Assembly: GCA_963793305.1 (NCBI GenBank)
Contig: CAWBZV010000005.1
Span: forward strand, 608,001 to 672,000
Source: an uncultured Gemmatimonadales bacterium
GTDB taxonomy: Bacteria; Gemmatimonadota; Gemmatimonadetes; Gemmatimonadales; Gemmatimonadaceae
DNA length: 64,000 bases
Direction of reading: 5' to 3'
The notes beneath the pieces were generated by a model, which saw only the letters and a list, made by a program, of their open reading frames with translations, was not told the origin of the DNA and ran no database searches. The position numbers and the translations under genes were made by a program. This document shows, piece by piece, positions 16,446 through 56,788 of this stretch. Position 1 is the stretch's first letter. Each line of letters opens with the position of its first letter.

Positions 16446-16489
16446 CGCCTGGCGCCACGGCGCCCAGCCTTTGCGTTGTGATTTGCTGT

Positions 16490-16588: not shown

Positions 16589-16743
16589 TCAAGGCGGCTT
16601 ATCACTGCCTCACGCCCGGGGGCGCGCCGACCGCCGAGGCTTCGCAGTTGGCCCGTCGTCTTCGTGGTTGGCCGCTGATCGTGCTACCCCATCGCGCGGT
16701 AGGATCTCCAAGGTTGCCGAGCTCTTTGCAACGCCGACGCAAT

Positions 16744-18276: not shown

Positions 18277-19799
18277 TCGCGAAGACGAGCAGCGGGAAAA
18301 GCTTCGGCGGCCTGATGCACTATCTCGAAGTAGGCCGGTCAGGTCGTGAGCCCGAGCGGGTCGATTGGACCGCGTCACGGAACCTCTTCGGCACGGACGA
18401 CCCGGAACTCGCCGGCCAGGTGATGGAGGCTACGGCCGAGCAGAGTCTCCGCATCCAGAAGCCCGTCTATCACTTGTCGCTCTCGTTCGATCTGACGGAC
18501 AGAGTCGACCGGTCGCGTATGGAGCTCGTGGCGGACCGGTTGCTCGACCGCCTGGGGTTGCAGGACCACCAGGCCATGTTCGTCGCGCACCGCGACCGCG
18601 AACACGCGCACGTCCACATCGTCGTCAACCGCGTCCACCCCGAGACCGGCGTGGCCTGGGAGCAATGGCAGGATCACCCGAGGATCGAGCGGACGCTGCG
18701 AGAGACGGAGCGCGAGATGGGACTCCGTGAAGTGCCGGGCCGCCTCTACCGCGCGCCCGGCCACGAGCTCCCCGAGCGCGCCCTCGACACCAGTGGAGAG
18801 CGTCACGCCGCTGAGAGGACACACGAAATGTCATTCGCTGACACTGTACGCCAACATTTGCCGGAATGGCGCCAGGCACAGTCATGGGAAGATCTTGCCG
18901 AGCGACTGGCGAACTATGGGTTCAGGATTGAACCAAGGGGCCAGGGGATCGTGATCACGGACGGCGAGCAACAGGTGAAAGCCTCGCGCGTGGCCCGTGA
19001 TCTGTCGGTCAACCGCCTGGAGCGGAAATTCGACGCGCCGTACCCCGGCAGGGCCCTCAGTGAGCCGGGGCGCGAGATCGATCCCGCGATTCGAGGCCTG
19101 GTGCGCGATATCCGCGCGTACGACGAGGCTACACGGCATGCGAAGGCCTTGGGTGAAGCCGAGACCCGGTCGCGCGAGGCTGCCGAGCATGCGCACGCCA
19201 TAGAGCGCGCATCTCGTGACTGGCGCAATCGCGCCGACAACGTCACTCGGGCCCTCGGCCGCGTGTACCAGTCGCCGGAGGACGCCCGGGTCCGACTCGC
19301 CGAACTGGAGCGTGCGCTCGGCAAGGAAGTGGTCACGCGAGAGCTTCACGACCGCCCGGAGCAATTCGGCCGGCTTCGGACTGTCGAGCGCCCAGGCGTG
19401 CTTGGACTTGTGCGGCGCGACGACGCACCAGCTCGCGCCGAAGCGCGGAATCTCGGGGTTGCGATCGACGATTACCGCAAATCGGAGCAATCCCTCCGAT
19501 CGCATCTGCGCCCAGGCAGCGAACTGACGAGAGACTTGGTCGATACCGTGGAACGCGCGGCCGGCATCGCGCATGACCGTGCGCAGAGCGTTGTCCGCGA
19601 GCTGCGCGACGCCGGCCAAAACTTGCCGGACCGGCGCGTCATGCAGCGGACAATCGGAGAGCTCGCGTCAACGCTCTCGGCGCCGGAATCGCGACTCCTG
19701 CGGACGTTCGTCACTGATGCCCAGGCGCGACTGGTGACGAAGTTCGTGGGCTTCGCCCGCGAGATCGCACTCGGGCGCGATCGTGGCCTTGGGGTCTGA
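18273..19799 (+). CDS. MOBP-family relaxase/mobilization nuclease
   Basis: Motif I GKSF.GLMHYL, motif II YHLSLSF, motif III HRDREHAHVHIVVNRV. Confidence 0.92.
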   Translation: MIAKTSSGKSFGGLMHYLEVGRSGREPERVDWTASRNLFGTDDPELAGQVMEATAEQSLRIQKPVYHLSLSFDLTDRVDRSRMELVADRLLDRLGLQDHQAMFVAHRDREHAHVHIVVNRVHPETGVAWEQWQDHPRIERTLRETEREMGLREVPGRLYRAPGHELPERALDTSGERHAAERTHEMSFADTVRQHLPEWRQAQSWEDLAERLANYGFRIEPRGQGIVITDGEQQVKASRVARDLSVNRLERKFDAPYPGRALSEPGREIDPAIRGLVRDIRAYDEATRHAKALGEAETRSREAAEHAHAIERASRDWRNRADNVTRALGRVYQSPEDARVRLAELERALGKEVVTRELHDRPEQFGRLRTVERPGVLGLVRRDDAPARAEARNLGVAIDDYRKSEQSLRSHLRPGSELTRDLVDTVERAAGIAHDRAQSVVRELRDAGQNLPDRRVMQRTIGELASTLSAPESRLLRTFVTDAQARLVTKFVGFAREIALGRDRGLGV

Positions 19800-19804
19800 G
19801 ACCA

Positions 19805-20212
19805 ATGGATAGCCGCTCGCCGGCGGCCGCACCCCTGGATGCATTGCGGACGAAGTGGCGAGCCCGGCGCGACGAGTTCGCCAGGTTCCAGGCGGCCGTC
19901 AATGGCGCGACGCTCTGTGACGAACTGCTGGCCGACCTCAATGGCGCGCTGCTGGCGCACGACGACGAAGTGCTCACGTTGCGCGATGCGGCCGCGGTAT
20001 CGGGGTACACGGTCGATCATCTCGCACGGCTGATCCGACAAGGCAAGCTACCGAACGCCGGACGGAAGCGCGCACCGCGTGTGCACCGTCGTGACGTACC
20101 ACTCAAAGCGAACACCTCGCGCGGACACGACACAGATAGCTATAATGCCCGATCCGACGCCCGGTCCCTCGTGCGGCGCCTCCGTTTCGGAGGCGTAGAT
20201 GACACAGACTAA
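19805..20212 (+). CDS. Excisionase-like HTH protein
   Basis: LTLRDAAAVSGYTVDHLARLIRQGKLP; immediately upstream of the integrase. Confidence 0.7.
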   Translation: MDSRSPAAAPLDALRTKWRARRDEFARFQAAVNGATLCDELLADLNGALLAHDDEVLTLRDAAAVSGYTVDHLARLIRQGKLPNAGRKRAPRVHRRDVPLKANTSRGHDTDSYNARSDARSLVRRLRFGGVDDTD

Positions 20213-21497
20213 CGGCTGGCGGAAGGTAGGGGACCGGTGGACGCGATCGCTCGGAGTGCGTGGGCTTCGCGTCCGGCTGTTTCAAAAGCGAAAGCATGGA
20301 GTGTTCTATCGGACACTGTGGGTACCCGGTGAAGGCAAGGACCGGAAGTGTCTCGATACGAGTGATCGTCGAGAAGCAGAGCGACTCGGTCGAACATTGC
20401 TCACCGAACTTCGCTCCGCTCGGGTGGCTCGTGCGCCCCAGATTCGATCAGAAGCGCCGTCGTCACTTACGCTAGGCGAGCTGTGGCGGCGATATCGCAC
20501 GACATGTCCCGCGTTTCTCGACAACGCGGCGACGAGCCAAAGTGACTCGCGGAGCCGGATACGAGTGCTCCTGGCGCACTTTGGCCGCCGGTGCCCGGTC
20601 GGGAGCTTGACGGCTGACGACCAAGCCTCGTACGTAATCGCTCGTCGCGCTGGAGGAATCCGCATCCGGGAAGGTGAGTTGACCGGACCAGTGCGTACAC
20701 GTTCGGCCGAGGCAGACCTGGTGCTCCTGCACCAGATGCTCCGTTGGGCTACAACGGCACGAGTTGATGGCGTGCCGCTGCTCCGAAGTAATCCACTAGC
20801 CGGCGTACGGCGGGTTCGCGAGCAGGACCCGAAGCGACCGATTGCGACGTGGGACCGATATCTGGCCACACGCGCCGCGGTGCGCGAGTTGGCGGCGCAA
20901 GCGGAGTCAGAGGCTGATCGAGTGCGCTGGGTCAAGATCGAGCTCGCACTCGTTCTCGCCGAAGCCACGGGACGACGACTCGGCTCGATTCGGCAGCTGC
21001 GGTGGGAAGACATCGACTGGGCGGCCTGCACCATTCGTTGGCGGGCAGAGGCCGACAAGAAACGGCGCGAGGCGATCGTGCCTGTCCCGCTTCGGTTACT
21101 CGACGAGCTCAGACAGTTTCAGAAAGAGTTGCGCGCGGTTGGCGGCCTGGTCTTCGGCGCCGAACACGACGCGACGAACGCGATGGATCGCCACCTGTTC
21201 GACAAGTGGCTCGCGCATGCTGAGAAGAGAGCTGGACTCAAGAAGCTGGACGGTGGACTGTGGCACCCTTACCGGCGAAAGTGGGCAACCGAGCGAAAGC
21301 ACCTCTCGGTTACGGACGTTGCCGAAGCCGGCGGGTGGAAAGACACCGTGACCTTACTGACGTGCTACGCGCGGCCAGATAACGAAACGCTCCTCGCCGT
21401 GATGAGCGAGGAGCGGAAACTCAGAGACTGCGCGGTTCGGTGCGAGAAACGGGCCCCCAACGGGCCCCCGTTAATCTTGCAGTTCGTAAGTTGTTAA
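20199..21497 (+). CDS. Tyrosine recombinase/integrase
   Basis: ATGRRLGSI..LRW.DID (catalytic R), WHPYRRKWAT (HxxR), GGW...LLTCY (W, Y); adjacent to the tRNA att site. Confidence 0.92.
   Translation: MTQTNGWRKVGDRWTRSLGVRGLRVRLFQKRKHGVFYRTLWVPGEGKDRKCLDTSDRREAERLGRTLLTELRSARVARAPQIRSEAPSSLTLGELWRRYRTTCPAFLDNAATSQSDSRSRIRVLLAHFGRRCPVGSLTADDQASYVIARRAGGIRIREGELTGPVRTRSAEADLVLLHQMLRWATTARVDGVPLLRSNPLAGVRRVREQDPKRPIATWDRYLATRAAVRELAAQAESEADRVRWVKIELALVLAEATGRRLGSIRQLRWEDIDWAACTIRWRAEADKKRREAIVPVPLRLLDELRQFQKELRAVGGLVFGAEHDATNAMDRHLFDKWLAHAEKRAGLKKLDGGLWHPYRRKWATERKHLSVTDVAEAGGWKDTVTLLTCYARPDNETLLAVMSEERKLRDCAVRCEKRAPNGPPLILQFVSC
21448..21469 (+). repeat. Tandem AACGGGCCCCC repeats; probable integrase arm-type sites
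   Basis: Perfect pairs at 21448-21469 and 10213-10235, and a degenerate pair at 13669-13689, each near an att core. Confidence 0.6.
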
Positions 21498-21504
21498 GAA
21501 TCAA

Positions 21505-42509: not shown

Positions 42510-42610
42510 TACCGGTATTGCCCTCCCGGGGGGACAGTCTCATGCGCGTTAAGGCCGTGTTTCGGTTCCAACGACTTGTAGGTCAACGAGTTGGGAACCG
42601 GGCCCCAACG

Positions 42611-42624
42611 GGCGCGAATCTCGC
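42611..42624 (+). promoter_or_regulatory. Possible sigma54 (-24/-12) promoter
   Basis: GG-N10-GC (GGCGCGAATCTCGC) 15 nt before ATG 42639, preceded by an inverted repeat at ~42563-42600. Confidence 0.3.
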
Positions 42625-42638
42625 TTCCCGATACTGGC

Positions 42639-42947
42639 ATGCCCGCCATACCAGTAGAGACCACGGACGCGCTGCGATCGGCGATCATCGAGCACGTCAC
42701 GTTGGAGCCGGCGCCCGAGGCCCAAGTGCTCGATCGCGTGATCGAGCGGCTGACGCGAGAAGGGCAGCATCTCAACCTGCGCGTCGAGCAACTTCTGGTT
42801 GTCGTGAAGACCTGCTGGCACGAACTGCCCCTGGCCATTCGCCGCTCGCCACGCGCGGCTCCGGATATCCTGCTGAATCGCATGGTCCAAGGGTGCATTC
42901 GGACGTACTACGCGGATTCACGGCGTCGTCGGAGATTGGTCACGTAG
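42639..42947 (+). CDS. Small helical hypothetical protein
   Basis: MPAIPVETTDALRSAI...EQLLVVVK..W...CIRTYY; plausible codon usage. Confidence 0.55.
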   Translation: MPAIPVETTDALRSAIIEHVTLEPAPEAQVLDRVIERLTREGQHLNLRVEQLLVVVKTCWHELPLAIRRSPRAAPDILLNRMVQGCIRTYYADSRRRRRLVT

Positions 42948-44066
42948 CACGTCGGTCACGTGTCGTGCGATCATCAGCTCTTCGTCGGTCGCGACGACAC
43001 GCACGGTGACCGCATCGCCGTCCGCGGAGAGAATCGCAGCGTTGGCGCCGTTCCGTGCCGGGTCGACACGCACGCCGAGAAATCCCAGCCCCTCGCAGAT
43101 CTGCTCACGCACCGGCGCCGCGTGCTCGCCGATGCCGCCAGTGAACACGATCGTATCAACGCCTCCAAGGGCCGCGGCATAGGCGCCAATGGTTTTCTTG
43201 ACGTGGTAACAGAACACGTCGATGGCTTCTCGCGAATCGGCATCCGTTCGCGCCAGCAATTCCTGCATATCGCTCGTCGCGCCCGAGAGCCCGAGCAATC
43301 CCGCTTGATGGTTGACGAGACGCCCGACGTTACCGGCCGACATATCACGTAACAGATACAGCATGACGCCAGGATCCAGATCCCCGGATCGCGTCCCCAT
43401 GACGAGCCCTCCGGTCGGCGTCATCCCCATACTGGTATCGACACTCCGCCCGTCGAGGACAGCCGCGACGCTCGCGCCGTTGCCGAGGTGCGCGATGATG
43501 GCCCGCTTGCCCAGCGGGACGGCGCTGACCACGTACTCGTAAGACAGCCCGTGGAACCCGTAGCGAATCACCCCGCGATCAGTGAGCGGCCGGGTGAGCC
43601 CCCACAGTTGCGCCACCCGCGGCATGCGCCGGTGAAACGCGGTATCAAAGCACGCGATCTGCTCAAGTCCGGACGACCATCGCCGCACCGCCTCGATCGC
43701 CTCGAGTGCCTGCGGCAGATGCTCCGGCGCCAGGGGAATCAGCCCACGCAACGTGTCCTCCACCGTTGACGTGATGCACACCGGTCCGAAATACGTCGCG
43801 CCACCGTGCACGATGCGATGCCCGACCGCGGCGAGACTCCGCACGTCGAGCCGTGCCTCGAGCGTCTCGGTCAGCACGCGCCACGCGGCGGCATGATCGG
43901 GCAGATCAACGCGCCGCTCGTCCGATGGCGTGCCGTGCACGGTCAGCGTGCCATCCGGCGTCCCGATGCGTGCCAGCGCGCCGGACATGATGCGCCCGTT
44001 CGCGTCTGCCTTCGCGAACACGGCGAACTTGAGGGACGACGAGCCGGCATTGAGCGCGAGAATCAT
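42918..44066 (-). CDS. ackA: Acetate/propionate kinase
   Basis: ILALNAGSSSLKF; GHRIVHGG; FDTAFH; RYGFHGLS; HLGNGAS; TSMG.TP..G..MGTRSGDLDP; FTGGIGE; TDEEL. Confidence 0.95.
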   Translation of the reverse strand: MILALNAGSSSLKFAVFAKADANGRIMSGALARIGTPDGTLTVHGTPSDERRVDLPDHAAAWRVLTETLEARLDVRSLAAVGHRIVHGGATYFGPVCITSTVEDTLRGLIPLAPEHLPQALEAIEAVRRWSSGLEQIACFDTAFHRRMPRVAQLWGLTRPLTDRGVIRYGFHGLSYEYVVSAVPLGKRAIIAHLGNGASVAAVLDGRSVDTSMGMTPTGGLVMGTRSGDLDPGVMLYLLRDMSAGNVGRLVNHQAGLLGLSGATSDMQELLARTDADSREAIDVFCYHVKKTIGAYAAALGGVDTIVFTGGIGEHAAPVREQICEGLGFLGVRVDPARNGANAAILSADGDAVTVRVVATDEELMIARHVTDVLRDQSPTTP

Positions 44067-44106
44067 GGACGAATGGCCAATTTGGTATATGTTGGACCCC
44101 GGGCGT

Positions 44107-45603
44107 ATGGAGCAGCGCGTATTCTACTGCCAGGGCCCGGAAGCACACGTCTGGTCCGATCCAGATGATGCGGGCAAATGTTGTAACGGGTACGAGCGCG
44201 CCGTCGAGATCCAGCGCGACGCGCAGGGCAACGCGCAACTCGCATACTTCTGGCGCCCGATCCCGTCCCCAATCGTCGGTATCGCGGGAGCGCTGGTCGC
44301 CGATGAGGCACGCACACTCGGAACCGACCAGATCGTGATCCCGCCGAGCCCGACCCCGCCTGTCGAGGCCCACAGATGCTCGTTAGACGACGAGCCGCGC
44401 AGCGGGGAGGAGGGTCTTAGCCCGCTCCGCCACATAGCGTACTTCGAAGCACTCGGCGCCTCCGAGACGGGCACCCCGGAGTGGGAGGCGACGTCAGCCG
44501 GACTCGTCGTGCTCAGGCTCGTTGACCGTTGGGTCTGGCGCCACGTCCGCGAGCGCGCACCGACGTTTCGTGAATTCGTCACCGTTCGGCGAGCGATCGC
44601 GCGCGTCGCGCCCGGTGCGATGCGCGCCGCGCTCGAGGAGCTCGCCTCGGCGGTCGCCGTATTCTCCAGCGCGCGCGCGTCGCCAGTGAACGACTGTCTC
44701 ATGGCCTACGCGCAGGTCCTGCAAGATGGCGCGCAGTGGTCGTTGGCGGCCGACGTGTATGACACAGTCCTAATGAATGCGAGATCGGCGTCGGACGCGC
44801 GGGCGTTGCCGGTCTGCGCGGTGCGTGCCGGTCTCTGTCTCCGGATGATGGGCAAACTCCGGGAGGCCGACCGGGTGTACCGCTTCGGTCTCGACGTTGC
44901 CTCGGAGATCGGCGATCGGCACAGCGCGATGCTCGCGCGCGTCGGCCTGGCCGCGGTCGCGGCGCAGCGCGGTGAGCTGCCGGAAGCCGTGTCCGTGCTG
45001 GACCAGGTGATTCTTGACGCTGTCGGGCCGGAGCTCAAGGCGGTCCGGGCCGCGGCGCTTCACGATCGTGGCGGCGTCGCGATCGTCCGGCAGGAATATG
45101 AGCGGGCGGTGCTGCTTCTATATGAAGCGTTCACGCTCTATCAGGATGTCGCGAACCGTGACCGGGCGTTGAACGATCTCGCGACCGCGCTCGGCAGTCT
45201 CGGGTTGCGTGGGGCGGCGCACGATGCGTACTTCGTCATTCATTCGACGTTGCATCAGCGGGATCTGCGGTGGTGGGCAGGCCTCAACCTCATGCGGTTG
45301 GCGGTGCTGGAGCACAACGAGAGCGAGTTTGAGCAGTACCGGCTGCGGCTGCGCCGGGAATCGCTGACGGGCACGCATGCGGCCCACTATGCCCTCTTCG
45401 TCGGGGAGGGGCACGCACGGTTCGGGCGACCCGATCGGGCGCGCCGTGCGTTCTCGCGCGCCGCGGAGCTCGCGCTGGAGTTCGGTCTTCCGTCGGTTGC
45501 CGCCGGAGCGATCGCGGCGCGGGGATCGTCGGAGGTCGCGGCCACGCCCGCCGTCGCGCGGGTCGTCACCGCGATCCGCGCATTGGCCGGAGTCGAATCC
45601 TGA
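44107..45603 (+). CDS. TPR-repeat protein with Cys/His-rich N-terminal extension
   Basis: Helical repeats (ARVGLAAVAAQRGEL.EA, ALHDRG, RDRALNDLA, YALFVGEG); paralog of 55753..56788. Start uncertain. Confidence 0.65.
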   Translation: MEQRVFYCQGPEAHVWSDPDDAGKCCNGYERAVEIQRDAQGNAQLAYFWRPIPSPIVGIAGALVADEARTLGTDQIVIPPSPTPPVEAHRCSLDDEPRSGEEGLSPLRHIAYFEALGASETGTPEWEATSAGLVVLRLVDRWVWRHVRERAPTFREFVTVRRAIARVAPGAMRAALEELASAVAVFSSARASPVNDCLMAYAQVLQDGAQWSLAADVYDTVLMNARSASDARALPVCAVRAGLCLRMMGKLREADRVYRFGLDVASEIGDRHSAMLARVGLAAVAAQRGELPEAVSVLDQVILDAVGPELKAVRAAALHDRGGVAIVRQEYERAVLLLYEAFTLYQDVANRDRALNDLATALGSLGLRGAAHDAYFVIHSTLHQRDLRWWAGLNLMRLAVLEHNESEFEQYRLRLRRESLTGTHAAHYALFVGEGHARFGRPDRARRAFSRAAELALEFGLPSVAAGAIAARGSSEVAATPAVARVVTAIRALAGVES

Positions 45604-45605
45604 CC

Positions 45606-46451
45606 ATGCGGTTGCACCTGGGTCGCCGTTTGCGTGTGCTGCCAGCGCTCGCCGATCACGTCCTGCCATCGACGCGATCGATCGATGTCATCGCGTTTCT
45701 GCCCGACCGGCTGCTCCAGACGCTCCGCGTGGTCGCCGCGGGGCGTCATGTGCTCACGACTGTCGCGACGATGTCGGAGCTGGACGCAGCGTTGCGACAG
45801 GGTCGCGCCGATTGCGCGGTGGTCGATCCGCAGGGTCCTGGCCGGCCCGGGGCCAAGCGACTCGGACCGTTGCTCGCGCGGTATCCGGGCGTGCACGTCG
45901 TGGTGTATACGACGCTCACGGCCGAGTCCATGCACGACGTCGCGGCCCTCGGCGTTCGCGACGTCGTGCTCTTCAACTGCGACGACCGGCCGACCTACTT
46001 TCGCGACCTGCTCGAGACCGCGCCGGCGGCCTCGCTCACGGACGACGTGCTGGCGCGGGTCGAGGGGGCGCTCACGATCGTGCGACCCGAGCTCCGTCGC
46101 GCGCTGGCCGAGCTCTTTCGCGCTCCGGAAACAATCAGATCGGTCGATGCCTTCCGTCGCGTCGCGGGTATGTCACGCATGACGCTCGGCCGTGCGCTCA
46201 CGAAGGCTGGGCTGACGTCGCCTAGTGGTCTTCTGCGATCGGCCCGCGTGGTCCGCGTGTACTTCCTGGTGCGTCGCGGCGGGCTCCGCCTCAAGATTAT
46301 CGCGCCGCGGCTAGGCTACTCGTCGCCGCGAAAGTTGGCGGATGAGTGCAAGGCGTTGACGGGGCTCACGCCGATGCTGTTGTCGCGGACCGTCGATCCC
46401 GATGAGTTCTCGGCGCTCATCGCGCGCAAACTCATGCGCCATCCGTTGTAG
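45606..46451 (+). CDS. AraC-type HTH regulator with receiver-like N-terminal domain
   Basis: DCAVVDP...VVVYT receiver-like segment; SV......GMSR.TL.R.L..AGL..P..LL..AR...IA.RLGYSS.R.L. Confidence 0.75.
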   Translation: MRLHLGRRLRVLPALADHVLPSTRSIDVIAFLPDRLLQTLRVVAAGRHVLTTVATMSELDAALRQGRADCAVVDPQGPGRPGAKRLGPLLARYPGVHVVVYTTLTAESMHDVAALGVRDVVLFNCDDRPTYFRDLLETAPAASLTDDVLARVEGALTIVRPELRRALAELFRAPETIRSVDAFRRVAGMSRMTLGRALTKAGLTSPSGLLRSARVVRVYFLVRRGGLRLKIIAPRLGYSSPRKLADECKALTGLTPMLLSRTVDPDEFSALIARKLMRHPL

Positions 46452-46634
46452 CTGCGCCGTTCATAACCACTCCGTTTTCAACACCACGTATCGTCCTCGT
46501 CGCGTATTGCTTCTGGCAACATTTTACAGTTGCGGGTGTGACTCAGTGGGCATATCTATGCCGCCACAGGCAAGCAGTCAGTGAGAGTGCGCCGCTGACG
46601 GGTCGTATGCAGCGAGTTCGATCCCTTTGTTCCG

Positions 46635-46958
46635 ATGATCGCGAGCTTTTTCCGGCGCGCCCGCGGGAAGCCAGCCGTTTCGTTGTCCGACCGTCTCATC
46701 GCGTCCCCACGCGTGTCGCGCGCGACGCAGCACGGTCAGACCATGCTGCTCGATCTCTCGGGCGGGGCGTACTACACGCTGAACGAGAGCGGCGCGTTCA
46801 TCTGGGACATGCTGAAGCAAGGCACCACGCTCGGCGAGATCGTCGACGCGCTCGAAGCGCGCTACGATGCGCCACGCGAACAGATCGCTTCCGACGCCTC
46901 CACAATGACCACGGAGCTGATTGCTGCCTCCTTGGTCCGCTTTGAGCGTGCCCAGTGA
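46635..46958 (+). CDS. Lasso peptide RiPP recognition element (B1, PqqD family)
   Basis: LLDL..G.YYTLN.SGAFIW.ML..G.T..EIV.AL..RYD....I..D.......L....LV. Confidence 0.9.
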   Translation: MIASFFRRARGKPAVSLSDRLIASPRVSRATQHGQTMLLDLSGGAYYTLNESGAFIWDMLKQGTTLGEIVDALEARYDAPREQIASDASTMTTELIAASLVRFERAQ

Positions 46959-47356
46959 TGACGCGAACTCGCGTCATCAAGCGAATTCGAGCCGTCGACA
47001 GCGCGGTCGCGCTGATCGCGATCAAGCTCATGCTGCTCGTGATCGGCTTCGCGCGCACTTACTCATTGCTCCAATCGCGCGTGCGCGATCTCGCCACAAC
47101 CACCGAGCCCGATGCCGCGACCTTGGACGCCTCCGCGCGCTCGATCGTCGTCGCCGCCATACTGATTCCGGGCCGCATCGAGTGCCTTGAGCAATCTTTG
47201 GCACTCTGGTACTTACTCCGCCGCCGCGGTGTCTGCGCCGAGCTGACGTTCGGCATGCGACAGTACCCGTTCGGCGCGCACGCCTGGGTAACCTACCGAG
47301 GCGAGCCGCTCAACGAGGATCGCGAAGCGCTCCGACATTACGTCGCCTTCGCCTGA
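46955..47356 (+). CDS. Lasso peptide leader peptidase (B2, transglutaminase-like)
   Basis: CLEQSLAL..LLRRRG....L.FG....PF.AHAWV...G..LNE (Cys-His catalytic motifs). Confidence 0.92.
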   Translation: MMTRTRVIKRIRAVDSAVALIAIKLMLLVIGFARTYSLLQSRVRDLATTTEPDAATLDASARSIVVAAILIPGRIECLEQSLALWYLLRRRGVCAELTFGMRQYPFGAHAWVTYRGEPLNEDREALRHYVAFA

Positions 47357-47360
47357 TCTC

Positions 47361-49107
47361 ATGCCCTCATTCTTCACACTGGTGCGCCCGGGCGGCGTCC
47401 CAGCCGACGAAGGAGTTCGCTGCGGCGACTGGACCGTCGTTGGCACGGCGCGCCTCGACAACCGCGCCGATCTCCAGTCGTGGGCGAACGCACCGGCAGC
47501 GGCCTCCGATCTCGATCTGATCGCGTCGGTAATCTCCACTCGCGGCGAACGCTGCGTCCGCGACCTCCTCGGCGACTTCGCTTTCGTCGCCCAGAATGCC
47601 GTGACTCACCAGGCAATCGCGGCGCGCGACGCATTCGGCGTGCGGCCTCTCTACTACCGCACCAAGCCCGACGAGCTGGCCTTCTCTTCCCACGCCGCTC
47701 GTCTGGCCGAGGGCACCGAGTATGACCTCGACTACATCGCCGAGTTCATTCTTTCGGGCTTCGACCGCGACCACCGCACACCTTACCGCGGCGTCCGCGC
47801 TTTCCCTCCGGGCCACGTCCTCGTAGCCCAGAACGGCACCACGACTCTCTCGCGCTACTGGTCCGCGGCCGAGTTCCAGCCCGCCGAGCATGCCTCGGCC
47901 GAGGAGAGCTGCACCGAGTTCCGTGCTTTGCTCGAGCGCGCGCTCATTCTCGAACCTCACAGGCGCCGACGACTGTTGGTCGCAACTGTCAGGCGGTCTC
48001 GACTCCTCCTCGCTCGTTTCGCTCACAGAAACAATGCGCCGTGCCGGCCGAGTCCCACACGGGATCGCCGGCACCGTGATGATGGTCGACTCGCTCGACG
48101 ACGAGTCTCACTACGCACGCGCGGTCGTCGAACAGTACGGCGTTCGCTTCGAAACGGTCACCGACTACTGGCTCTGGCAAGACGACGGCGAACCGCCGCC
48201 GCCCAACGACCTACCGGACCCACTCTACCCGATGTACGCCCGCAACCGCGCCCTCTGCTCGATCGTGCGCAACGCCGGCGGTCGAGTTTTGTTCAGCGGC
48301 GTCGGCCCCGACCACTTCGTCGCCGGCAACCTGTATTTCTTCGCCGACTGGCTCGCACGCGGCAAGGTCCTCGAAACCATTCGCGAGCTCTGGCGTTGGT
48401 CGGTGCTCGGCAAGAAGCCATTCTGGAAATACGCGGTCGACAACGCGATCGCCCCTTTGCTGCCGTCACGCCTCCGCAGCCTGGCGGCGCCGCGCTGGGC
48501 GCAGGTATACGACTGGATCTCTCCAGGGTTTGCCCGTCGCCTTGGGTTGAACGATCGGACCGCATGGGGCCGCGCGCTTAACGAGGCCCCACTCGGACAC
48601 AAATTCGAGGGGCAGGGCGTAGCGGACATCGATCACTTGGTCGTATGCATCGATCGTGGCGAGTTTGAGAGGGGCATCGAGATGCGATGTCCATTCCTCT
48701 ATCGCCCATTCGTGGAATTCTGCCTTCGGCTTCCGCGCGAGCTCCGTATTGAGAAGGCGACCAAGAAGTGGCTCATGCGCGAGGCGATGAAGGGCGTCCT
48801 TCCCGAAGGCGTTCGCACTCGTCGCGATAAGGGTGCGATCAGCGGTCGCACGCGCTGGGCTCTGAGTCGAGAAGGGTCAACTATCGCAACTATGCTGAAG
48901 TCGTCAACCCTCGCCGACCTAGGATGTATCGACATTACGAAGGTGCGGAAGGCAATTGAACGCGCTCGCACCGGTGATGACGCGGTGCTGTTCGCGGTCA
49001 CGCGAACGTTGGCGCTCGAATTCTGGCTACAGGTTACCAATCACCGGAGGAGGGTCCGCAGCCTTCCTACCGATTCGGCGGCATCGACCCTCGCCGTCGC
49101 CGTATAA
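47361..49107 (+). CDS. Lasso cyclase (asparagine-synthase-like isopeptide ligase); +1 indel near 47948
   Basis: ARLDNR.DL; GDFAF; RD.FGVRPLYY; then in the next frame LSGGLDSSS, DESHY, LFSG.G.D, R.PFL, KWLMREAM.G.LPE.VR.R.DK. No N-terminal Cys. Confidence 0.88.
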
Positions 49108-49135
49108 CACCACTCATTCTGGAGAAAGCAAGACA

Positions 49136-49255
49136 ATGCACAGCACCATCAAGCAGAGCTACCTTGCACCAAGCGCCACGCACACGACAATCGCGGTCGT
49201 CACGCTCGGAACCGCCAGTCAGTCTGGTGAGCCTGTCGCCGGCCTCCACTGGTAA
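49136..49255 (+). CDS. Lasso peptide precursor: leader MHSTIKQSYLAPSATHTTIAVVTL, core GTASQSGEPVAGLHW
   Basis: GGAGA RBS; YxxP leader motif; Thr at -2; core G1 with E8 acceptor; directly after the cyclase. Confidence 0.9.
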   Translation: MHSTIKQSYLAPSATHTTIAVVTLGTASQSGEPVAGLHW

Positions 49256-49264
49256 GCCGAGCTG

Positions 49265-49297
49265 CTGACGTGGAGCGGTCGCGGCCGCTCCCGTCAG
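49265..49297. terminator. GC-rich stem-loop between the convergent precursor and TonB-receptor genes
   Basis: CTGACG(T)GGAGCGG-TCGCGG-CCGCTCC-CGTCAG. No U-tract, so it may be a stabilising hairpin rather than a terminator. Confidence 0.5.
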
Positions 49298-51888
49298 TAC
49301 AGGACGCGGAGTCCGAGGCTGGTCGTACGTCCGGGTGTCACAAACGTGGCAAATTGCTCGACAGCGTGGTTGTCGGTGAGGTTGTCGACGCTGACCCAAC
49401 CAGAGACGCGTCGGCTCAATTGCTGGTCGATCGTAAACCTGAGCTTGACGAAGCCAGGCCAACGCTTGAGTTCTTGGCGGGGAGTGAGGAGCGAATCTGC
49501 GGGGAGCGCCTGCTTCACGACGTCCATGCTGGTCCAGTAACCGACATACGTCCCTCCGACGCCAATGTCTCCGCCACGCCAGGGCGTAGCATTCATCGTC
49601 ATCCCACCTGACGTCAGTGGTACCAGTTGCGCTTGGTCGCCGACTCGGTATGAGCCGGTCGTGTCGCCGCCTAGTTTGACGATCTTGCTGGATGTGTACG
49701 AGTATTCCCCGGTCAAGCGCACCGGTGGCAAGGTGACCGTGCCGCTGATCTCCAACCCTTCGTTCTTGATCTCGCCGATATTTTGATACTGAAAGATGGT
49801 GGTTCCTTGTTTCGATCCCACTTGCTCGTGAATGATCAGATCATGTGCCCGCTGGTTGTAGTACGTGACCGAGAGTGATCCTGAATTGCCGAATTCCAGA
49901 TCAACTCCGCCGTCGCCGCCATCTTGACGCTCCGGCGCCAGCACCGGATTCGCACGCTGAACGGCGCCGAAGAGAAGAGACGCAGAATCACGTTGCGCCG
50001 GTAGACCGGGTTGGATCGCCGATCCGTACGAGGTCCGAGCTTTCAATACGATGTCGCCCAATGATTTAACGAAGGAGGCTCCGATTCGAGGAGCCAGCGC
50101 CACGCTGTAGTGCAGTCCGAAGCCGTTGTCTATGTCTGCGCGCAACCCGCCCGTCACGAATAGATGTTCCAGCACATTGATCTGGACTTGGCCGAAGCCG
50201 CCTGTGTTACTCACGGGATTGCGGTTGATAGCTGCCGCCGACGAGGAAGCGAGTCCCACGATGGCCGGCAATAGTGAGAGACCGACTTGATCTGATGTCC
50301 GTTCGTAGTGATCGAACCCGATCGTTGCTACTCCGTTCCATTCACGGCCGATTGGAACATGCACCGACGAGTTGTACGCGATGGATGCCTTGCCACTGGC
50401 TTGGTTGAATGACGCCAATAAGCTGTCGCCGGGGCTCGTGTATTGTGGTGACGTGCGTACTTCTTCGAGCTCGGAACGATCATAACCGATCGTGAGGCTG
50501 TGTGTCCACGCTTCGAAAGGACGATAAACGAGATTCAGCCCGTACGTCTCCTCGCGCTCCGTGTCGGTAGTGTTCTGCGGCTTCGCGTACGCCGGGACCC
50601 CAGTGGCGATGAGCGCCGGCGACTCGATGGCTGGGAAGGTCCTTTCGATATAACGAGCCGAGAGTTGAACGGAGACTGGCCGCTCGTCCAGGCGAATGCC
50701 GCCGTAGGCGCTCGGATCAGACGAATAGTACCCCGGTAGCCAGTCACCTACGTGGCGATAAGAAGCCCCGAGGTCATAGCTCGCGTCACCGTGAGCCCGT
50801 TCCAGAGATACGCTGTACTTCTGCTGCAACGCGGCGCCAGGCTGCGCAGGATCTTGGACGACGCCCTCGGCGACCGATGCCTCCAGGGTCGGATGGTCGG
50901 TCGCCAGCTCGCCATGCTTCGTGAAGATTTGCATCACACCACCGCTGGCATCCGATCCATAGATGGTCGACGCTTCCGGTCCGCGGATGACTTCGACGTG
51001 ATCGATACTGTTGATGTCGACAGCCGCATATGCGGGATCCGCAACCTCGACTCCGTCGATGTACGTCTTGATGTTGTTGATATTGAACGAGTTGATGCCT
51101 CGCACGCTGATCGTGCTGTAGTAGTCAAGTTGGCCTTGATCCCAGGCGATGCTCCCCGGCACTTGCCCGCGGAAGATCTGGTCCACACTTGTGAGGTGCT
51201 GTTGCTGGATCTCGTCACTCGTGATGACGCTGATGGGCGTCGGTATGTCGGCCACCAAAGTGGGCGTGACGGTACCGGTCACAACGACCCGTTCGAGCTC
51301 ACCCGTGAACTGCTCGACGCGAAACTCGACAGTCTGCCGACTGCTCTGGGTGACCGTGACCGTCTGGGACACGGGATGGTAGCCGAGCAGGCGTGCCTGG
51401 ACGGTGAAGGTGCCGTTGGGCACCGAGTCCAGACGGAACGCGCCGCTGTCCGTGGTAACCCCGTGGTGCCACAGGCCCACAATGACGATCGTGGCGCCGG
51501 GGATAGGTGCGCCGGTGTGCGAGTTCAGAACGTGGCCGCGGACGACCGACGGCGGAGCCTGGCGGACGATGATCGCGGAATCGAATGGCTGCGCGACGAG
51601 CCCCGTGCCGCGCAGAACGAAGCCGAGGGCGCGGGCTAGGGTGGTGCGGGAGTCGTGGAGTGTGACTCTCTGGGCAAGTGAGTTGACGACCAGCGTCTCG
51701 AAATTGAAGTCGACGCCAGTCGACCTGTGGATCTCGTCGAGCGCCTCGCGGACCGTCGCGTCGCGAAGGTCGACGGTGACGATCCGATCGAGGGGAGTCG
51801 GCGACGAACTGGCGGGGCGGGGAGTCGCCGGAGCCTGGGCACGCGCAACGCAAGGCTCCACTCCCAACCCGACGGAAATGGCCAGCAC
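49294..51888 (-). CDS. TonB-dependent receptor/transducer with STN signalling domain and carboxypeptidase-regulatory-like domain
   Basis: PLDR.VTVDL....V.EAL..I (STN); VVVTGT TonB box; YIDGV; IDHVEVIRGP.ASTIYGSDASGGV.QIFTK; NLTD...PGRT..LG. Confidence 0.92.
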   Translation of the reverse strand: MLAISVGLGVEPCVARAQAPATPRPASSSPTPLDRIVTVDLRDATVREALDEIHRSTGVDFNFETLVVNSLAQRVTLHDSRTTLARALGFVLRGTGLVAQPFDSAIIVRQAPPSVVRGHVLNSHTGAPIPGATIVIVGLWHHGVTTDSGAFRLDSVPNGTFTVQARLLGYHPVSQTVTVTQSSRQTVEFRVEQFTGELERVVVTGTVTPTLVADIPTPISVITSDEIQQQHLTSVDQIFRGQVPGSIAWDQGQLDYYSTISVRGINSFNINNIKTYIDGVEVADPAYAAVDINSIDHVEVIRGPEASTIYGSDASGGVMQIFTKHGELATDHPTLEASVAEGVVQDPAQPGAALQQKYSVSLERAHGDASYDLGASYRHVGDWLPGYYSSDPSAYGGIRLDERPVSVQLSARYIERTFPAIESPALIATGVPAYAKPQNTTDTEREETYGLNLVYRPFEAWTHSLTIGYDRSELEEVRTSPQYTSPGDSLLASFNQASGKASIAYNSSVHVPIGREWNGVATIGFDHYERTSDQVGLSLLPAIVGLASSSAAAINRNPVSNTGGFGQVQINVLEHLFVTGGLRADIDNGFGLHYSVALAPRIGASFVKSLGDIVLKARTSYGSAIQPGLPAQRDSASLLFGAVQRANPVLAPERQDGGDGGVDLEFGNSGSLSVTYYNQRAHDLIIHEQVGSKQGTTIFQYQNIGEIKNEGLEISGTVTLPPVRLTGEYSYTSSKIVKLGGDTTGSYRVGDQAQLVPLTSGGMTMNATPWRGGDIGVGGTYVGYWTSMDVVKQALPADSLLTPRQELKRWPGFVKLRFTIDQQLSRRVSGWVSVDNLTDNHAVEQFATFVTPGRTTSLGLRVLY

Positions 51889-51989: not shown

Positions 51990-53045
51990 CTATTGCCGGA
52001 ATAGCTGAACCTTATGCTCGTCGGGTTTGTATTGCAGACCCGCAACCGTCTGCGTGAGCAACCCGAGGGTGTGCTCCATTGTGCCGTCAGCAACAGTGAT
52101 TGTGACTGGAACGGCAGCAAGACTCGCGTCCGCGATCTCGATGTCGATATTGTACTTTCGTCCGATCGTCTCGGCGACCTCGCGAAGTGGCGTATCCGTG
52201 AACGCCAACCGCCCCACGGTCCAGTCGAAGTACGCCGAGCCCACGGCCGTCACACGCACCGCACGCCCGGCGACGTTGACCTGCCCGATGCGCCCGCCCT
52301 CGAGGATCTCACTCCCGTACGGCGTCTTCACCGACACGCGCCCACTCTTGACGGCCACGCGCGCATCGCTGCCCGGATAAGCTCGCACGTCGAACTCAGT
52401 GCCGAGATCCCGCGTCTCGATGTTGCCCGCGCGCACGAGGAAAACGCGATCGGATCGATGCTCGACAGTGAACGATGCCTCGCCGACCAACGTCGCGACG
52501 TGATTGCCCGCGCGATCGATGGCGAACGAGAGACGGCTATCAGGTGCGAGCACGACGCGCGCGCCATCAGGCAAGCGCTGCTCGTGCGGCGTCTCCCCGC
52601 GCATCGCCATATAACTCACCGGCACGGACCGCACGGTAGCCACGCGCGAGATCACGTATGTCGTGCTAATCAACACGACCGCAGCACTCGCCGCGACAGC
52701 ACGCCACGGGATGCGCCAGCGCGGCATACCTTCAGCGAGCCCGCCGTCGACAACGCGCAGATGCTCGATCCCGCGCCCAGGCAGAGAGAACCGATCGCGC
52801 CGGTCGTGCTCGGCGATACGATCCTGTACCGATTCCCACGCATCTTCCGGATCGACCGGACTCGCCCCGATGCGCCGCCCGATCATCGACCAGACTTTCT
52901 TGTGCGCCTTGATGTAGCGCTGCACCGAGAGATCGTCCGACATCCAGCGCTCGACCTCGCGCCGCTCCGGCAGCGGACTCAATCCATCCAAAAAGCGGTG
53001 GACCGCCTCCCACCGCGGATCGTCCGGTCCGTATTCGTCAGTCAT
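51990..53045 (-). CDS. FecR-family anti-sigma factor
   Basis: TM segment; LPDG.RV.L.PDS.L; L.GEA.F.V.H; DLGTEF.V; V.V..G.V; W..GRL.F.D.PL.EV. Confidence 0.92.
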   Translation of the reverse strand: MTDEYGPDDPRWEAVHRFLDGLSPLPERREVERWMSDDLSVQRYIKAHKKVWSMIGRRIGASPVDPEDAWESVQDRIAEHDRRDRFSLPGRGIEHLRVVDGGLAEGMPRWRIPWRAVAASAAVVLISTTYVISRVATVRSVPVSYMAMRGETPHEQRLPDGARVVLAPDSRLSFAIDRAGNHVATLVGEASFTVEHRSDRVFLVRAGNIETRDLGTEFDVRAYPGSDARVAVKSGRVSVKTPYGSEILEGGRIGQVNVAGRAVRVTAVGSAYFDWTVGRLAFTDTPLREVAETIGRKYNIDIEIADASLAAVPVTITVADGTMEHTLGLLTQTVAGLQYKPDEHKVQLFRQ

Positions 53046-53095
53046 GTGTCCGTCTCGGAGGTTCAACACATATATAGACGCATGAGACCCGCTAT

Positions 53096-53803
53096 CTACG
53101 TATTCCGTCCCGGAGTCGGCAACCACGGCGCCAACTCTTTACGAAGCGTTGCATACGCCTGATGCAACTGCGTGTCCACCGTACGAATCGACACGCCCAT
53201 CAGCTCCGCGATCTGTGCGTTCGTGATCTGCCCGACGCGATGTAACACCAGCGTCTCGCGCCGCCGCACCGGCAACTTGGCGACCGCCCGCGCGATCGCC
53301 GCTTGCAATTCGCCAACCGCGAGCTCCGACTCGACCGGCAGTCGCTCCGGGTTCTCCGGAAGCGGCCCGGGACCAAACGTCCCGTTCGACCGGAGCACCC
53401 GCGCGATCCAATGGCGCTCCACGCGCCGCCGCCGGAGCGCCGAAATCGCCCGCTTCCGCACGGCCGCGTACAAATACGAAACGAGCGACTGCCGCACCGA
53501 CAACGTCGTCCGCTTCGTCCACAAGTTCAGCATGACCTCTTGGACAATTTCCTGCGCGTCCGCGTCCGACGCTACGAGCGCATAGGCGATATTGACAAGC
53601 CAGGGCTGATAATGTAGAAACGCATCGCGGAACGCGGTCTCGTCACCGCGATGAATCCCATCGATCCACTGGCGATCGGTCGTCGCCTGATCGATGGCGC
53701 CCCCGTGCTGCACGGAGGGCGATTCGAATCGCGGCCGGCGATTCACCGATGGCTGCCGGTGGCGGAACGGAGGACGGCGAGAATCATCTGACGCGGAGAA
53801 CAT
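53096..53803 (-). CDS. ECF RNA polymerase sigma-70 factor (FecI-like)
   Basis: GDE.AF; DAQEIVQEV.L.LW; SYLY.AVR; LP.RRRE...L.......N..IAE.MGVS.RTV.TQL. Confidence 0.92.
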   Translation of the reverse strand: MFSASDDSRRPPFRHRQPSVNRRPRFESPSVQHGGAIDQATTDRQWIDGIHRGDETAFRDAFLHYQPWLVNIAYALVASDADAQEIVQEVMLNLWTKRTTLSVRQSLVSYLYAAVRKRAISALRRRRVERHWIARVLRSNGTFGPGPLPENPERLPVESELAVGELQAAIARAVAKLPVRRRETLVLHRVGQITNAQIAELMGVSIRTVDTQLHQAYATLRKELAPWLPTPGRNT

Positions 53804-53819: not shown

Positions 53820-54023
53820 CTACGCAGCAGTATGTGGCAAACTCAACTCAACGACCGGCTCGACGAGATCACGCGCCCGCCGACCCGGCAACCGATCGGC
53901 ACGCATCGCTTCCGCGAGATGCCGTAGCCCCTCGAAGTACGCGACCATCTCCGTCTCGGCGCGCACGCGCGCCTCGAAGATCGGACGATCCGTCGTATCG
54001 AATGCCCGGTAGATCCAATACAT
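53820..54023 (-). CDS. Small hypothetical protein
   Basis: AGGAGGA RBS upstream of ATG 54023; 67-aa ORF. Confidence 0.5.
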   Translation of the reverse strand: MYWIYRAFDTTDRPIFEARVRAETEMVAYFEGLRHLAEAMRADRLPGRRARDLVEPVVELSLPHTAA

Positions 54024-54235
54024 GGTGGGAGTCCTCCTTAATGCTCAAGAGACGCTCGCCACGCCCCGACTACGTATAGACGTGCGGACAACGTGACCGG
54101 GTGAACGTCGTTACGAAGCGCAAAGCCGGGGTCGCCAGGAAGCAACCTCAGCAAGGGCTTGTGCGGGGTATCTCAGCGCCTAATGTTGAGCCCGTTGAGA
54201 GCTCGCGCTCCGGCCCGCTCATAGGGGACGGGCCC

Positions 54236-54335
54236 GCGATAACGGCACAACCGCCGAAAGGCGGCGTCGCAAAGCTCTGGAGGCTAACGCGCGCTTGAGC
54301 CATTCGGGCGCGCCATGCCAGTCCGGCCGCCGAAC
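54236..54335 (+). ncRNA. c-di-GMP-I (GEMM-I) riboswitch
   Basis: GGCACAA-CCGCC-GAAA-GGCGG-CGTCGCAAAGC...GGCTAAC...CATGCC...GCCGAA: GNRA tetraloop, GCAAA junction and UAA/AU tetraloop receptor, 5' of an RBS and GTG 54360. Confidence 0.8.
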
Positions 54336-54359: not shown

Positions 54360-55710
54360 GTGACCACGCGGCTCATACTCGGCGCCTGCATGCTCGCGCA
54401 CGTGGCGCACGCGCAACTAGCGGCGAAGCCGTCGTTGGCGACACCCACAACGCTACGCGAGACAGAGACCGGTTCCTGGCGCGCGGGCGACGCCATGGTC
54501 TGGATCCGCGTCGCTCCCACCGGCGCGATCTCCGTCTACGCATCCCACGGGTACCGCAGCGCGTTCGCGCATGCGGTGATCATCACGCCCGAGGACGCCG
54601 ATAAATGGGCGGACCTCGGCGACCACGTTCTCGCCGGGCAAACGGCGAGTGGCGCGATCATGCTCGGCGACAGCGACATCGCGCTCGAGCCCATGCGCGC
54701 CGGCGACTCGGTCGCGCTCGCCGTCAGACTCGGCGGCGTGCGCCCCGACGGCATCACGTTCCTCATGAACGGGCAGTCGCTCCGTGAGGTCCTGCCGATT
54801 CTCCGGGCGACCGCGAAAGCAGCGCGCGCCACGCAATCGGCGAGCGCGGCACCTCCGGCGACAACACCGGCAACGCCGGCAGCCGCGCCGACTGCCGCGA
54901 AAACAGCTCCTGCGGCGCCAGTTATTGCGCCCGCTCCGGCAACGGCGACTGCAGCCCCACCTGCCGCGGCACCAGTTACCGTGACGCCAGCTACTGCGGC
55001 GCCAGCCGCTGCCCGCGCCACCACTCCGGCCGCCGCTCCCGCACCTACGCCGCACACGGCAGCGATCGACTCGCCCCCACCCGCAGTGCCGGTTGTCTTA
55101 GCCTCTGCGGCTGCGGCGCCCGCGGCTCCGCCAGAGGTCGCTGCGGCCGACACGCCACCCGCGCCCGCTCCCGAGGCCGAAGTGGCGCCAGCGACATCGA
55201 CGCCGAGCTGTCGTGGCAGCTCCGGTCGCGCCAGCTCAAGTCGCGCCAGTTCCGGTCGCGCCAGCTCCCGTTGCTCCCGCGAAAATCGCGAAAGTGACAA
55301 AGCTGAAGCCAACGCCCCAAGCGCCTGAGACGGTGCCGTTACGCCGTACGAGCGCCGGCAGCATCGCCAAGCCCGCGGCCGCCATGACGATCACCGTTGG
55401 GCCGACCGATGCCACCAAGCTCGCACCGTCGACCGTGGCCAACCTCGTCAAGCAATGGCAGTCGCAATTGGATCTTTGCTACTCTGAATTCGGCTTGAAG
55501 GTCAACCCGGCGTTGACCGGTTCGATCGCGGTGCGCCTCGCGATCCGTACCACGGGCGACGTTGGCGCGGCGACCTTCGTGCACCACAAGTGGTCTGGTG
55601 CGGGCGGTACCGAGGCCGAGTCGTGCATGCGCGCACGAGTGATGGCGTGGATGTTCCCACCGGCGTCGACGCCGAGTGCACACGAGTTCACCGTCGCCTT
55701 CGCACCGTAA
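54360..55710 (+). CDS. Secreted protein with Ala/Pro-rich linker and C-terminal AgmX/PglI (TonB-C-like) domain; frameshift near 55200
   Basis: Signal peptide; long A/P/T linker; L..CY...LK.NP.L.G.I.VRL.I...G.V...ESCM......W.FP...F...F.P. Confidence 0.75.
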
Positions 55711-55752: not shown

Positions 55753-56788
55753 ATGTGTCCGATGTCGCCGATTGCGTCTCTGACGCTTCGCTTGTCCGAT
55801 GCACCGCGCTCTGAGGACGACACCCAGTCGGTGCACCTGAGACTGGCCGATGCCGATCGGCTCCGCCGCAGCGAATCATGGGATGACGCCATCGCCGCAT
55901 ACCGCGCCGCGATCGGCGCGGCCGCCCCAACTGACCGCGATCTCCTCGCCGACGCCAATCGGCACCTCGGCTTCTGCCTGCGCATGGCGGGACGCCTCGG
56001 CCCCGCGGCCGACGCGTACGCCGCGGCGGCCAGCATGGCCCACGGCCTCCGCGATGTGCGGCGCATGCTGCTCGCGCGCATTGGATCCGCCGTGGTCGTG
56101 TTCTATCGCGGGAATCTCCCCGCAGCCGCCGATATGCTCGAGGCCGTAGTGCTCGAGGCCGAGTCGCTCGTGGCCACGAATCGCTCTCTCGTCAATGTCG
56201 TCGCGCGCGCCAAGCACGATCGCGCGACCATCGCGCACGATCGAGGGTCGCCCGAGATCGCCGTCGCCGATCTCTACGAAGCGTTTCATTTATATACCGA
56301 TGCCGCACAACGCGATCGCGTGCTGATCGACATGGCGCGCGCGTTCGGTGACCTCGGACTGACCAACGTCGCGCGCGATGCGCTGCTGCTCTGCCGAACG
56401 TGCGCCGCCGGTCCCGCCGCGCGCACCGCCGCGACGATCAATCTGCTCGACATGGCCCAGCGCGAAAGCGATCACGTCACGTTCGAGCACTATCGCCAGA
56501 ATGCTCGCCGCGGAGCCGCTCATTCCAAGACACGCGGCGTACTATCATCTGTTCGTCGGTGAAGGCCTGAGACGGTTCGGCGACGCCGCGGCAACGGATG
56601 CGTACGCGCGCTCACGCGACATCGCCGAGCGGTACGGACTGAACGAGGTCATGCTGCGTGCCGAGGCGGCACTGACCACCCCCGCTCAGTCGCCCACGGC
56701 ACGCGCCCCTCGCAAGACGACGTATCCGCCGGCGGTCCAGCGCGTCGCCGCGTCAATTCACGCGCTAGCCGCACAAAACGCGGGCTAG
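55753..56788 (+). CDS. TPR-repeat protein, paralog of 44107..45603; frameshift near 56500
   Basis: Shares motifs with the first copy: G.CLRM.G.L..A, LAR.G.A.V...RG.L..A, HDR, LYEAF.LY.D...RDR.L.D.A, AA.Y.LFVGEG..RFG. Confidence 0.75.

Follow-up and report, generated by a model that had tools for sequence, protein, structure and literature searches.

A lasso peptide cluster in an uncultured member of the Gemmatimonadaceae raises two questions: which peptide it encodes, and what that peptide is for. The cluster lies in a stretch of 64,000 nucleotides (hereafter the window), for which an earlier note had listed the biosynthetic genes and predicted a core. The new core alone is a routine new member; the interest of the locus is mostly in a missed receptor operon, a missing isopeptidase and a block of mosaic ancestry. 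In the working names used below, G000 is the window's assembly, other G labels are family genomes and L labels are loci.

Biosynthetic genes and the cyclase frame

The lasso pathway consists of leader binding, leader cleavage and ring closure, and genes for these steps follow one another on the plus strand. B1, the leader-binding RRE (46635–46958), matches PqqD (PF05402) at 73.5 bits, above the cut-off; the lasso-specific PqqD models score below their own cut-offs. The leader peptidase B2 (46955–47356) matches the lasso B2 model NF033537 at 86 bits (cut-off 33), as well as PF13471, and its Cys and His-Ala-Trp are invariant in all seven aligned B2 proteins. The lasso cyclase C (47361–49107) is read in two frames, a GATase_7 part at 47361–47948 and an Asn_synthase part with the motif SGGLDSS at 47950–49107, both halves matching lasso-specific NCBIfam models at scores under their cut-offs; in close relatives the gene is unbroken and encodes 581 aa. 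With these Pfam and NCBIfam matches, the three genes stand where the earlier note had placed them, and it is virtually certain that the locus is a real lasso cluster.

The cyclase frame is split in the window assembly by one extra base at 47947–47949, in agreement with the indel previously reported at 47948. The base is absent from all four relatives that have the site and from all four site-spanning contigs (three of four runs), which belong to other strains that differ from the window by 4–9%. Furthermore, of 69 genes with an unbroken frame in G001, the syntenic part of G000 has 16 (23%) broken, and the reverse comparison gave 4 of 58 matches, all at loci broken in G000 itself. Since the base is missing in relatives and contigs and neighboring genes are broken alike, an assembly error is the likely explanation, and we regard the frameshift as an artefact with considerable confidence. 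Were it real, the strain in the window would be a non-producer that keeps its receptor, a silent cluster or cheater whose relatives make the peptide. This is very improbable: the extra base does lie outside any long homopolymer, the contigs that lack it do come from other strains, and receptor-only modules do exist in the Gemmatimonadaceae, but the same assembly breaks nearly a quarter of the neighboring genes, and dN/dS is low in both cyclase halves and in the precursor, in pairwise comparisons involving the window.

The biosynthetic genes are preceded by an AraC-type regulator (45606–46451, plus strand; HTH_18, 39.7 bits, above cut-off), a candidate local regulator that is of the AraC rather than the GntR type and has homologues close to several other Gemmatimonadaceae lasso clusters. 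It is adjoined throughout the genus by a gene for a TPR protein (43930–45603, plus strand, start uncertain; TPR_12/TPR_MalT below cut-off), which is syntenic in L034, L035, L037 and L038. Between the regulator and B1, a non-coding element at 46530–46604 (plus strand) is conserved in eight aligned loci and could be a promoter/operator or a 5′ leader hairpin; it has matches at orthologous loci only, plus one in G000. A structured RNA was rejected for this element, as covariation is weak (two-sided change in 1 of 16 predicted pairs) and Rfam gives no match. Scanning for sigma-70 promoters and terminators performed at chance (2 versus 1.8 expected; 3 versus 4.9 expected). No exporter was found among the genes called from 42 to 57 kb of the window, and the peptide would leave the cell by a route encoded outside the cluster; in G003, an ABC-2 set precedes the AraC gene by about 2.4 kb.

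The order B1-B2-C-A had been called atypical, which does not hold for this lineage. Among 31 other Gemmatimonadaceae lasso loci, picked by likeness to the window's cyclase, two stop at the cyclase and the remaining 29 are informative; in every one of these the precursor lies 3′ of the cyclase, so that the gene order is normal for the lineage. A search of 401 family genomes confined the orthologous cluster to the window's genus and located B2-type genes in 262 of them, a tally in which three genomes labelled as unpublished (G012, G161 and G321) are counted; these three enter no other result given here. The remark that the host lineage is poorly mined for RiPPs is supported. Lasso clusters have been reported in 29 marine Gemmatimonadota genomes (PMC11316326), and no characterised lasso peptide from this phylum was found in the literature searched.

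A short precursor nested in a longer frame

The precursor is a 39-aa ORF (49136–49255) nested in a 99-aa ORF (48956–49255). As the earlier note had proposed, this hidden gene is real: it is conserved and its invariant core codons are under purifying selection, and YxxP, Thr at −2, Gly1 and Glu8 are as claimed for it. A ribosome binding site, GGAGA (49121–49125, plus strand), lies 10 nt 5′ of the ATG, with GGAG kept in all ten aligned loci. The 24-aa leader (49136–49207) has a YxxP motif at −16/−13 (Y9-x-x-P12), Thr at −2 and Leu at −1. It is followed by a core of 15 aa and a stop codon (49208–49255), which starts with Gly1 and would consist of a ring closed between Gly1 and Glu8, a loop from Pro9 to Gly12, and Leu13 and His14 as likely plugs. 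YxxP and Thr at −2 are marks of lasso precursors according to PMC6784204, which describes the Leu of YxxPxL as typical of Actinobacteria and not universal; the window's leader is without this Leu, having Ser at −12 and Ala at −11.

An orthologue of 37–45 aa lies directly 3′ of the cyclase in five of five congeneric genomes, and one follows the cyclase in nine of 11 metagenome loci, the remaining two of which end within the cyclase. At the seven invariant core codons, pS is 0.57 and pN is 0 over ten loci, indicative of purifying selection. The 99-aa frame was rejected as a gene; it is unconserved, and in three of ten relatives an in-frame stop occurs 6–16 codons 5′ of the ATG.

A profile search returned 51 candidates, of which 40 proteins, the window's own included, make up the precursor family; the set was clustered at 90% and is biased towards the search profile. 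In this set, all 40 members have Thr at −2, Leu at −1, Gly1, Gly7, Glu8, Pro9, Gly12 and His14, and position 13 is Tyr, Leu or Phe throughout. Ring positions 3–6 and positions 10 and 15 vary, core lengths range from 15 to 19 aa, and all 40 cores are distinct from each other. Glu8 and these lengths agree with lasso cores in general, which have 14–24 residues and an Asp or Glu at position 7–9. The leader Tyr at −16 is present in 39 of the 40. Two residues past the Pro, the 39 members with short leaders have Ala, Val or Thr, and YxxPxL occurs only in the 45-aa precursor of G003.

These data support the proposed cysteine-free class II core of 15 aa with a Gly1–Glu8 ring: Cys is absent from all 40 cores, and the window's core contains no Asp or Glu other than Glu8. 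We are confident of the core as predicted. Its mass after cyclisation, recomputed as M = 1477.695 and [M+H]+ = 1478.702, reproduces the earlier value of about 1477.69 Da. In the known pathway, B1 would bind the leader, B2 would cut after Leu−1, and C would join Gly1 to Glu8 around the tail to yield a lasso of 15 residues that residue 13 and His14 would keep in place; the product is probably threaded. Leu13, His14 and Trp15 had all been put forward as plugs. The family favors the first two positions, which are conserved, and speaks against the third, as position 15 is Ala in three and Val in eight of the 40 cores, which makes Trp15 a poor candidate; the pattern of conservation thus points to residue 13 and His14 as the likely plugs.

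The family amounts to a very short lasso scaffold that comes with natural tolerance data, positions 3–6, 10 and 15 being free and 7, 8, 9, 12 and 14 fixed. A literature search, with subscription papers, supplements, MIBiG and RODEO lists outside its scope, returned no paper with the core motifs, and the core may sit unnoticed in some mined dataset. The precursor profile, run against PDB sequences, gave an unrelated best hit (E = 0.55), in a library without chains under 20 residues and hence without most lasso structures.

A convergent receptor operon and no isopeptidase

On the minus strand, facing the precursor, are genes for a TonB-dependent receptor of 864 aa (49294–51888) with STN, carboxypeptidase-like, plug and barrel domains in Pfam, a FecR-type anti-sigma factor (51990–53126, start probably 53045; PF04773 and PF16344) and an ECF sigma factor (53096–53803, start uncertain; Sigma70_r2 and r4_2). 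This convergent operon had been overlooked in the first reading of the window, as had the absence of an isopeptidase and the mosaic block described below. The stop codons of receptor and precursor are 39 nt apart. Between them lies a candidate terminator-like hairpin (49266–49296, no strand assigned), which the terminator scan did not pick up; hairpins of −22 to −29 kcal/mol, energies without a shuffle control, fold at this place in five of five loci tried, from differing sequences. A search of the regions preceding B1 and the receptor gene yielded no common sigma-type motif, which leaves feedback of the sigma factor on the lasso genes unsupported.

A structure model of the receptor (pLDDT 83.7) matches folds of the SusC/FpvA/FoxA type at 13–19% identity, that is, TonB receptors in general and no narrower group. 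An earlier model of the barrel alone, from nine sequences, was poor (pLDDT 48.5).

We collected the best 31 homologues of the barrel, at 255 bits or more, from the 401 family genomes. Of these, 27 have a lasso cyclase gene within 10 kb; the other four comprise two that run into an S9 gene at the contig end, one on a contig of 2.8 kb and one orphan module. One of the 27 cyclase-linked barrels belongs to an additional module at a distance of 7 kb from a cluster, and orphan receptor modules are found at L092 and L111. A further 15, more distant homologues, chosen for their long contigs, form a separate clade; they are accompanied by sigma and FecR genes, and lasso genes are absent from the fetched stretches. 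In the genus of the window, the receptor adjoins the precursor in six of six genomes. Going by its homologues and their neighborhoods, the receptor is part of a lasso-associated lineage, and we consider it likely that it is cognate to the peptide. By its domain content and its lineage, it would bind the peptide and, by way of STN and FecR, pass the signal on to the sigma factor.

S9 peptidases are the family to which lasso isopeptidases belong. Such a gene is present in 25 of 29 other Gemmatimonadaceae lasso clusters, the clusters of L052, L053, L066 and L083 also being without one. None lies between precursor and receptor in the six loci of the genus, and PF00326 has no match in the window; the nearest matches on the same contig are at 554 kb and 711 kb. 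In a midpoint-rooted FastTree phylogeny, the genus's S9-less receptors form one clade of ten rows with a support of 100, nested among receptors that are mostly beside S9 genes, which makes loss of the S9 gene the simpler reading. If an ancestral isopeptidase was indeed lost from the cluster, the peptide would be read and not dismantled by a dedicated enzyme. The literature searched, with subscription papers and supplements outside the scope, contained no paper on the S9-less layout.

As a rival reading, the lasso might carry cargo, binding a metal or other nutrient outside the cell through His14 and the C-terminal carboxylate; the receptor would re-import the complex, FecR and the sigma factor would induce uptake, and release would proceed without a dedicated isopeptidase or with one encoded elsewhere. 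For isopeptidase clusters, such a hypothesis has been published (PMC9266682). It would fit the invariance of His14 in the 40 precursors and the arrangement of STN receptor, FecR and sigma factor, which is that of siderophore signaling receptors such as FpvA and FoxA. An enzyme could also act in trans: with five of six S9 queries from lasso clusters, the top two matches in the genome are the S9 genes of the two C3 clusters, and one query has a C9 gene in second or third place. However, His14 is the single conserved candidate ligand and is accounted for as a plug, the enzyme for release, on which the hypothesis centers, is absent from the cluster, and isopeptidases are reported to be cluster-specific (PMC9266682). 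We consider cargo transport unlikely.

Mosaic ancestry of precursor and receptor

The precursor and part of the receptor differ in history from their surroundings. The mosaic block, which has approximate borders and no strand (49000–51250), comprises the 3′ end of the cyclase, the precursor, and the barrel and plug of the receptor, with divergence beginning near 48400. Compared with L034 and L057, the window is 93–96% identical in nucleotides over araC and B1 and 90–91% over fecR, but only 68–69% over the barrel and 64% over the core; compared with L060, the values are 83–84% for araC and B1, 86% for the barrel and 80% for the core. Within the block, dS climbs from 0.1–0.25 to 1.8–2.1 with dN/dS near 0.1, a combination that points to exchange of old alleles and not to rapid change. 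The switch in history falls near receptor residues 200–230, where the periplasmic domains give way to the plug. AU tests on eight loci, with groups that were named after the identity tables had been seen and loci that are related to each other, agree with this: the barrel rejects the grouping of the flank (p-AU = 5.6e-6), and the grouping of the barrel is rejected by the flank (p = 0.0085) and by the STN and carboxypeptidase-like part (p = 1e-5).

From these comparisons, peptide and receptor appear to have been swapped between strains as a unit. The peptide gene and the ligand-facing part of the receptor would have been exchanged together, with the signaling domains staying with FecR, which is the pattern expected of cognate ligand-receptor pairs. 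Core and barrel identities correlate over nine loci (rho = 0.55, permutation p = 0.003), and the correlation drops to rho = 0.33 over 12 loci when inferred pairs are included. A candidate rule, by which Gln or Arg at core position 5 marks one receptor type, held in the ten loci seen in DNA and was abandoned after failing in two of three pairs that had been inferred from contigs of equal length.

Linkage and a general swapping of receptors remain rival readings of the mosaic block. With 39 nt between the stops, joint inheritance of precursor and receptor follows from linkage alone. In that case, the receptor could be uncoupled from the peptide, varying under pressure from phages or bacteriocins or taking up another nutrient, with the precursor hitch-hiking beside it and the peptide serving, for example, as an antibacterial. 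Several observations go with such a view. In a control comparison of barrels, where two of 28 loci are without an alignable barrel, four of 18 other barrels are 73–83% identical between the window and G001, as low as or below the 83% of this receptor, and the identity dip against G001 ranks near the bottom of 97 windows without being the lowest. Positive selection was found in neither core nor receptor loops, dN/dS being below 0.5 in every segment; loops, as defined from a low-confidence model, do not differ from non-loops. No strict residue rule ties core to receptor, orphan receptor modules exist, and antibacterial lassos are described in parts of the literature as entering through siderophore receptors. 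Against G004, on the other hand, six of six other barrels are 90–97% identical and that of this receptor is 68%. The receptor lineage is also tied to lasso clusters and, in the genus, to the flank of the precursor, and the cluster is without an exporter or immunity gene. Gly4 and the near-terminal Tyr or Phe, features reported for RNA-polymerase inhibitors (PMC6784204), are absent from the window's core, and Gly4 occurs in two of the 40 family cores. We therefore regard an uncoupled receptor as improbable.

Of the readings considered, we prefer the one in which the peptide is the ligand of the receptor and acts as its signal over its three rivals, and give it about an even chance on the sequence patterns described. 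A more specific form, in which the lasso would be a strain-specific signal, with matched peptide and receptor in each strain that are exchanged as a cassette, a readout through FecR and the ECF sigma factor and no need of the degrading enzyme, is put forward tentatively. If true, a mechanically knotted peptide would serve kin recognition or quorum sensing via a TonB receptor, and would do so in a phylum of which few members are in culture.

Comparison with known systems

The closest parallel is offered by isopeptidase-type proteobacterial clusters, which are described (PMC9266682) as having a TonB-dependent transporter, sigma and anti-sigma factors and usually no ABC exporter, and as enigmatic in function. 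With representatives such as astexin-2/3 with AtxE2, sphingopyxin I, benenodin-1 and rubrinodin, the window shares the class-defining genes, the TonB receptor and the sigma/anti-sigma pair. Unlike them, it has no isopeptidase in the cluster, an AraC-type regulator in place of the GntR regulator that precedes the precursor gene there, separate B1 and B2 genes, a precursor after the cyclase, a convergent receptor operon and an added carboxypeptidase-like domain in the receptor. Other Gemmatimonadaceae lasso clusters resemble the window in having B1-B2-C-A facing sigma-FecR-receptor, with receptors of the same lineage, but mostly include the S9 peptidase and have different and mostly longer cores, whereas the precursor family of the window has a short 15-aa core ending in G-[YLF]-H-x. 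Exporter-type antibacterial clusters, such as that of microcin J25, possess the ABC exporter that this cluster is without.

TonB receptors in lasso clusters have been noted before, and a role in resistance was suggested (PMC7849407). The role of lasso peptides accompanied by such receptors and sigma/anti-sigma pairs is described as unresolved in PMC9266682. In the literature searched, with subscription papers outside the scope, no paper connected lasso peptides and isopeptidases with quorum sensing and TonB, and the arrangement of receptor, FecR and isopeptidase appeared in a single review. The window presents a module reduced to peptide, receptor and signaling genes, in a family that offers 40 naturally occurring cores and receptors of five or more deeply diverged types. 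This natural series of peptides and receptors allows a cross-activation matrix, by which signal, cargo carrier and bystander could be told apart.

FecA-FecR-FecI is a siderophore cell-surface signaling system. In FpvA and FoxA, as in the window, cell-surface signaling of this kind involves STN, plug and barrel domains together with FecR and an ECF sigma factor; in contrast to these, the window's receptor, at 13–19% identity, has a ribosomal peptide as its presumed ligand. For the exchange of peptide and receptor, the staphylococcal agr system offers an analogy only: there, peptide, processing enzyme and receptor vary as cognate sets, according to a preprint (bioRxiv 10.64898/2026.04.29.721596). 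The two systems are not homologous; agr uses a histidine kinase, whereas the window combines an outer-membrane receptor with a sigma cascade and a putative cognate specificity.

Genes and elements flanking the module

The module, in which the lasso genes face the receptor–FecR–sigma operon, is bracketed by two paralogous TPR proteins (43930–45603 and 55753–56788), whose mutual identity, as measured in relatives, is about 39%. Upstream of the sigma gene lies the gene for a 67-residue protein (53820–54023) that is 100% identical in the congeneric genomes G001 and G004. A conserved non-coding element (46530–46604), found only at orthologous loci, precedes the RRE gene B1. A Pfam search with the protein of 102–118 residues encoded beside ackA (42591–42947) returned no match. 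Further out, positions ~6500–21500 carry genes for TIR, RES, FtsK, NikA/MobC, a relaxase and an integrase, and the G001 contig can be aligned with the window only from ~21 kb onward; this region looks like an integrated mobile element.

Riboswitch, gene with a TonB-C-like end and broken frames

Beyond the sigma gene, a c-di-GMP-I riboswitch was detected on the plus strand at 54234–54334 (57.5 bits; gathering cut-off, 35). Downstream of it, also on the plus strand and two genes away from the ECF sigma factor, lies a gene (54390–55707) whose product is rich in Ala and Pro and has an end resembling TonB-C; this protein could energise the receptor or could be unrelated to it. The gene's frame is broken in the window assembly; the G001 version comprises 404 residues. 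More broken-frame genes occur at 21.6–23.7, 54.4–59.1 and 60.5 kb, their G001 counterparts being intact, and "pseudogene" calls in the window's own genome assembly hold only subject to a check of the reads.

Related clusters, modules and precursors

The same genome carries two further lasso clusters, L041 and L042 (contig C3, 502000–521999 and 755000–774999). Each has three candidate precursors and encodes, besides a receptor, an S9 peptidase and a SusD-like protein. In L041 there are also two genes of the PqqD type, along with several TPR-like ones that lack annotation. Two sigma–FecR–receptor–S9 modules of the lasso-associated receptor lineage (L092:3405–15360 and L111:28–6866) have no adjoining lasso genes and are possibly eavesdroppers. 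At L066, a BNR-repeat protein (6356–8287) takes the S9 peptidase's place between receptor and precursors. This locus is among those in which Gemmatimonadaceae lasso precursors, many in number, combine very different rings with a common G-x-[VL]-G-[FY]-x-[LI]-like tail (L043, L066, L067, L069–L071, L073, L075–L078 and L080–L084).
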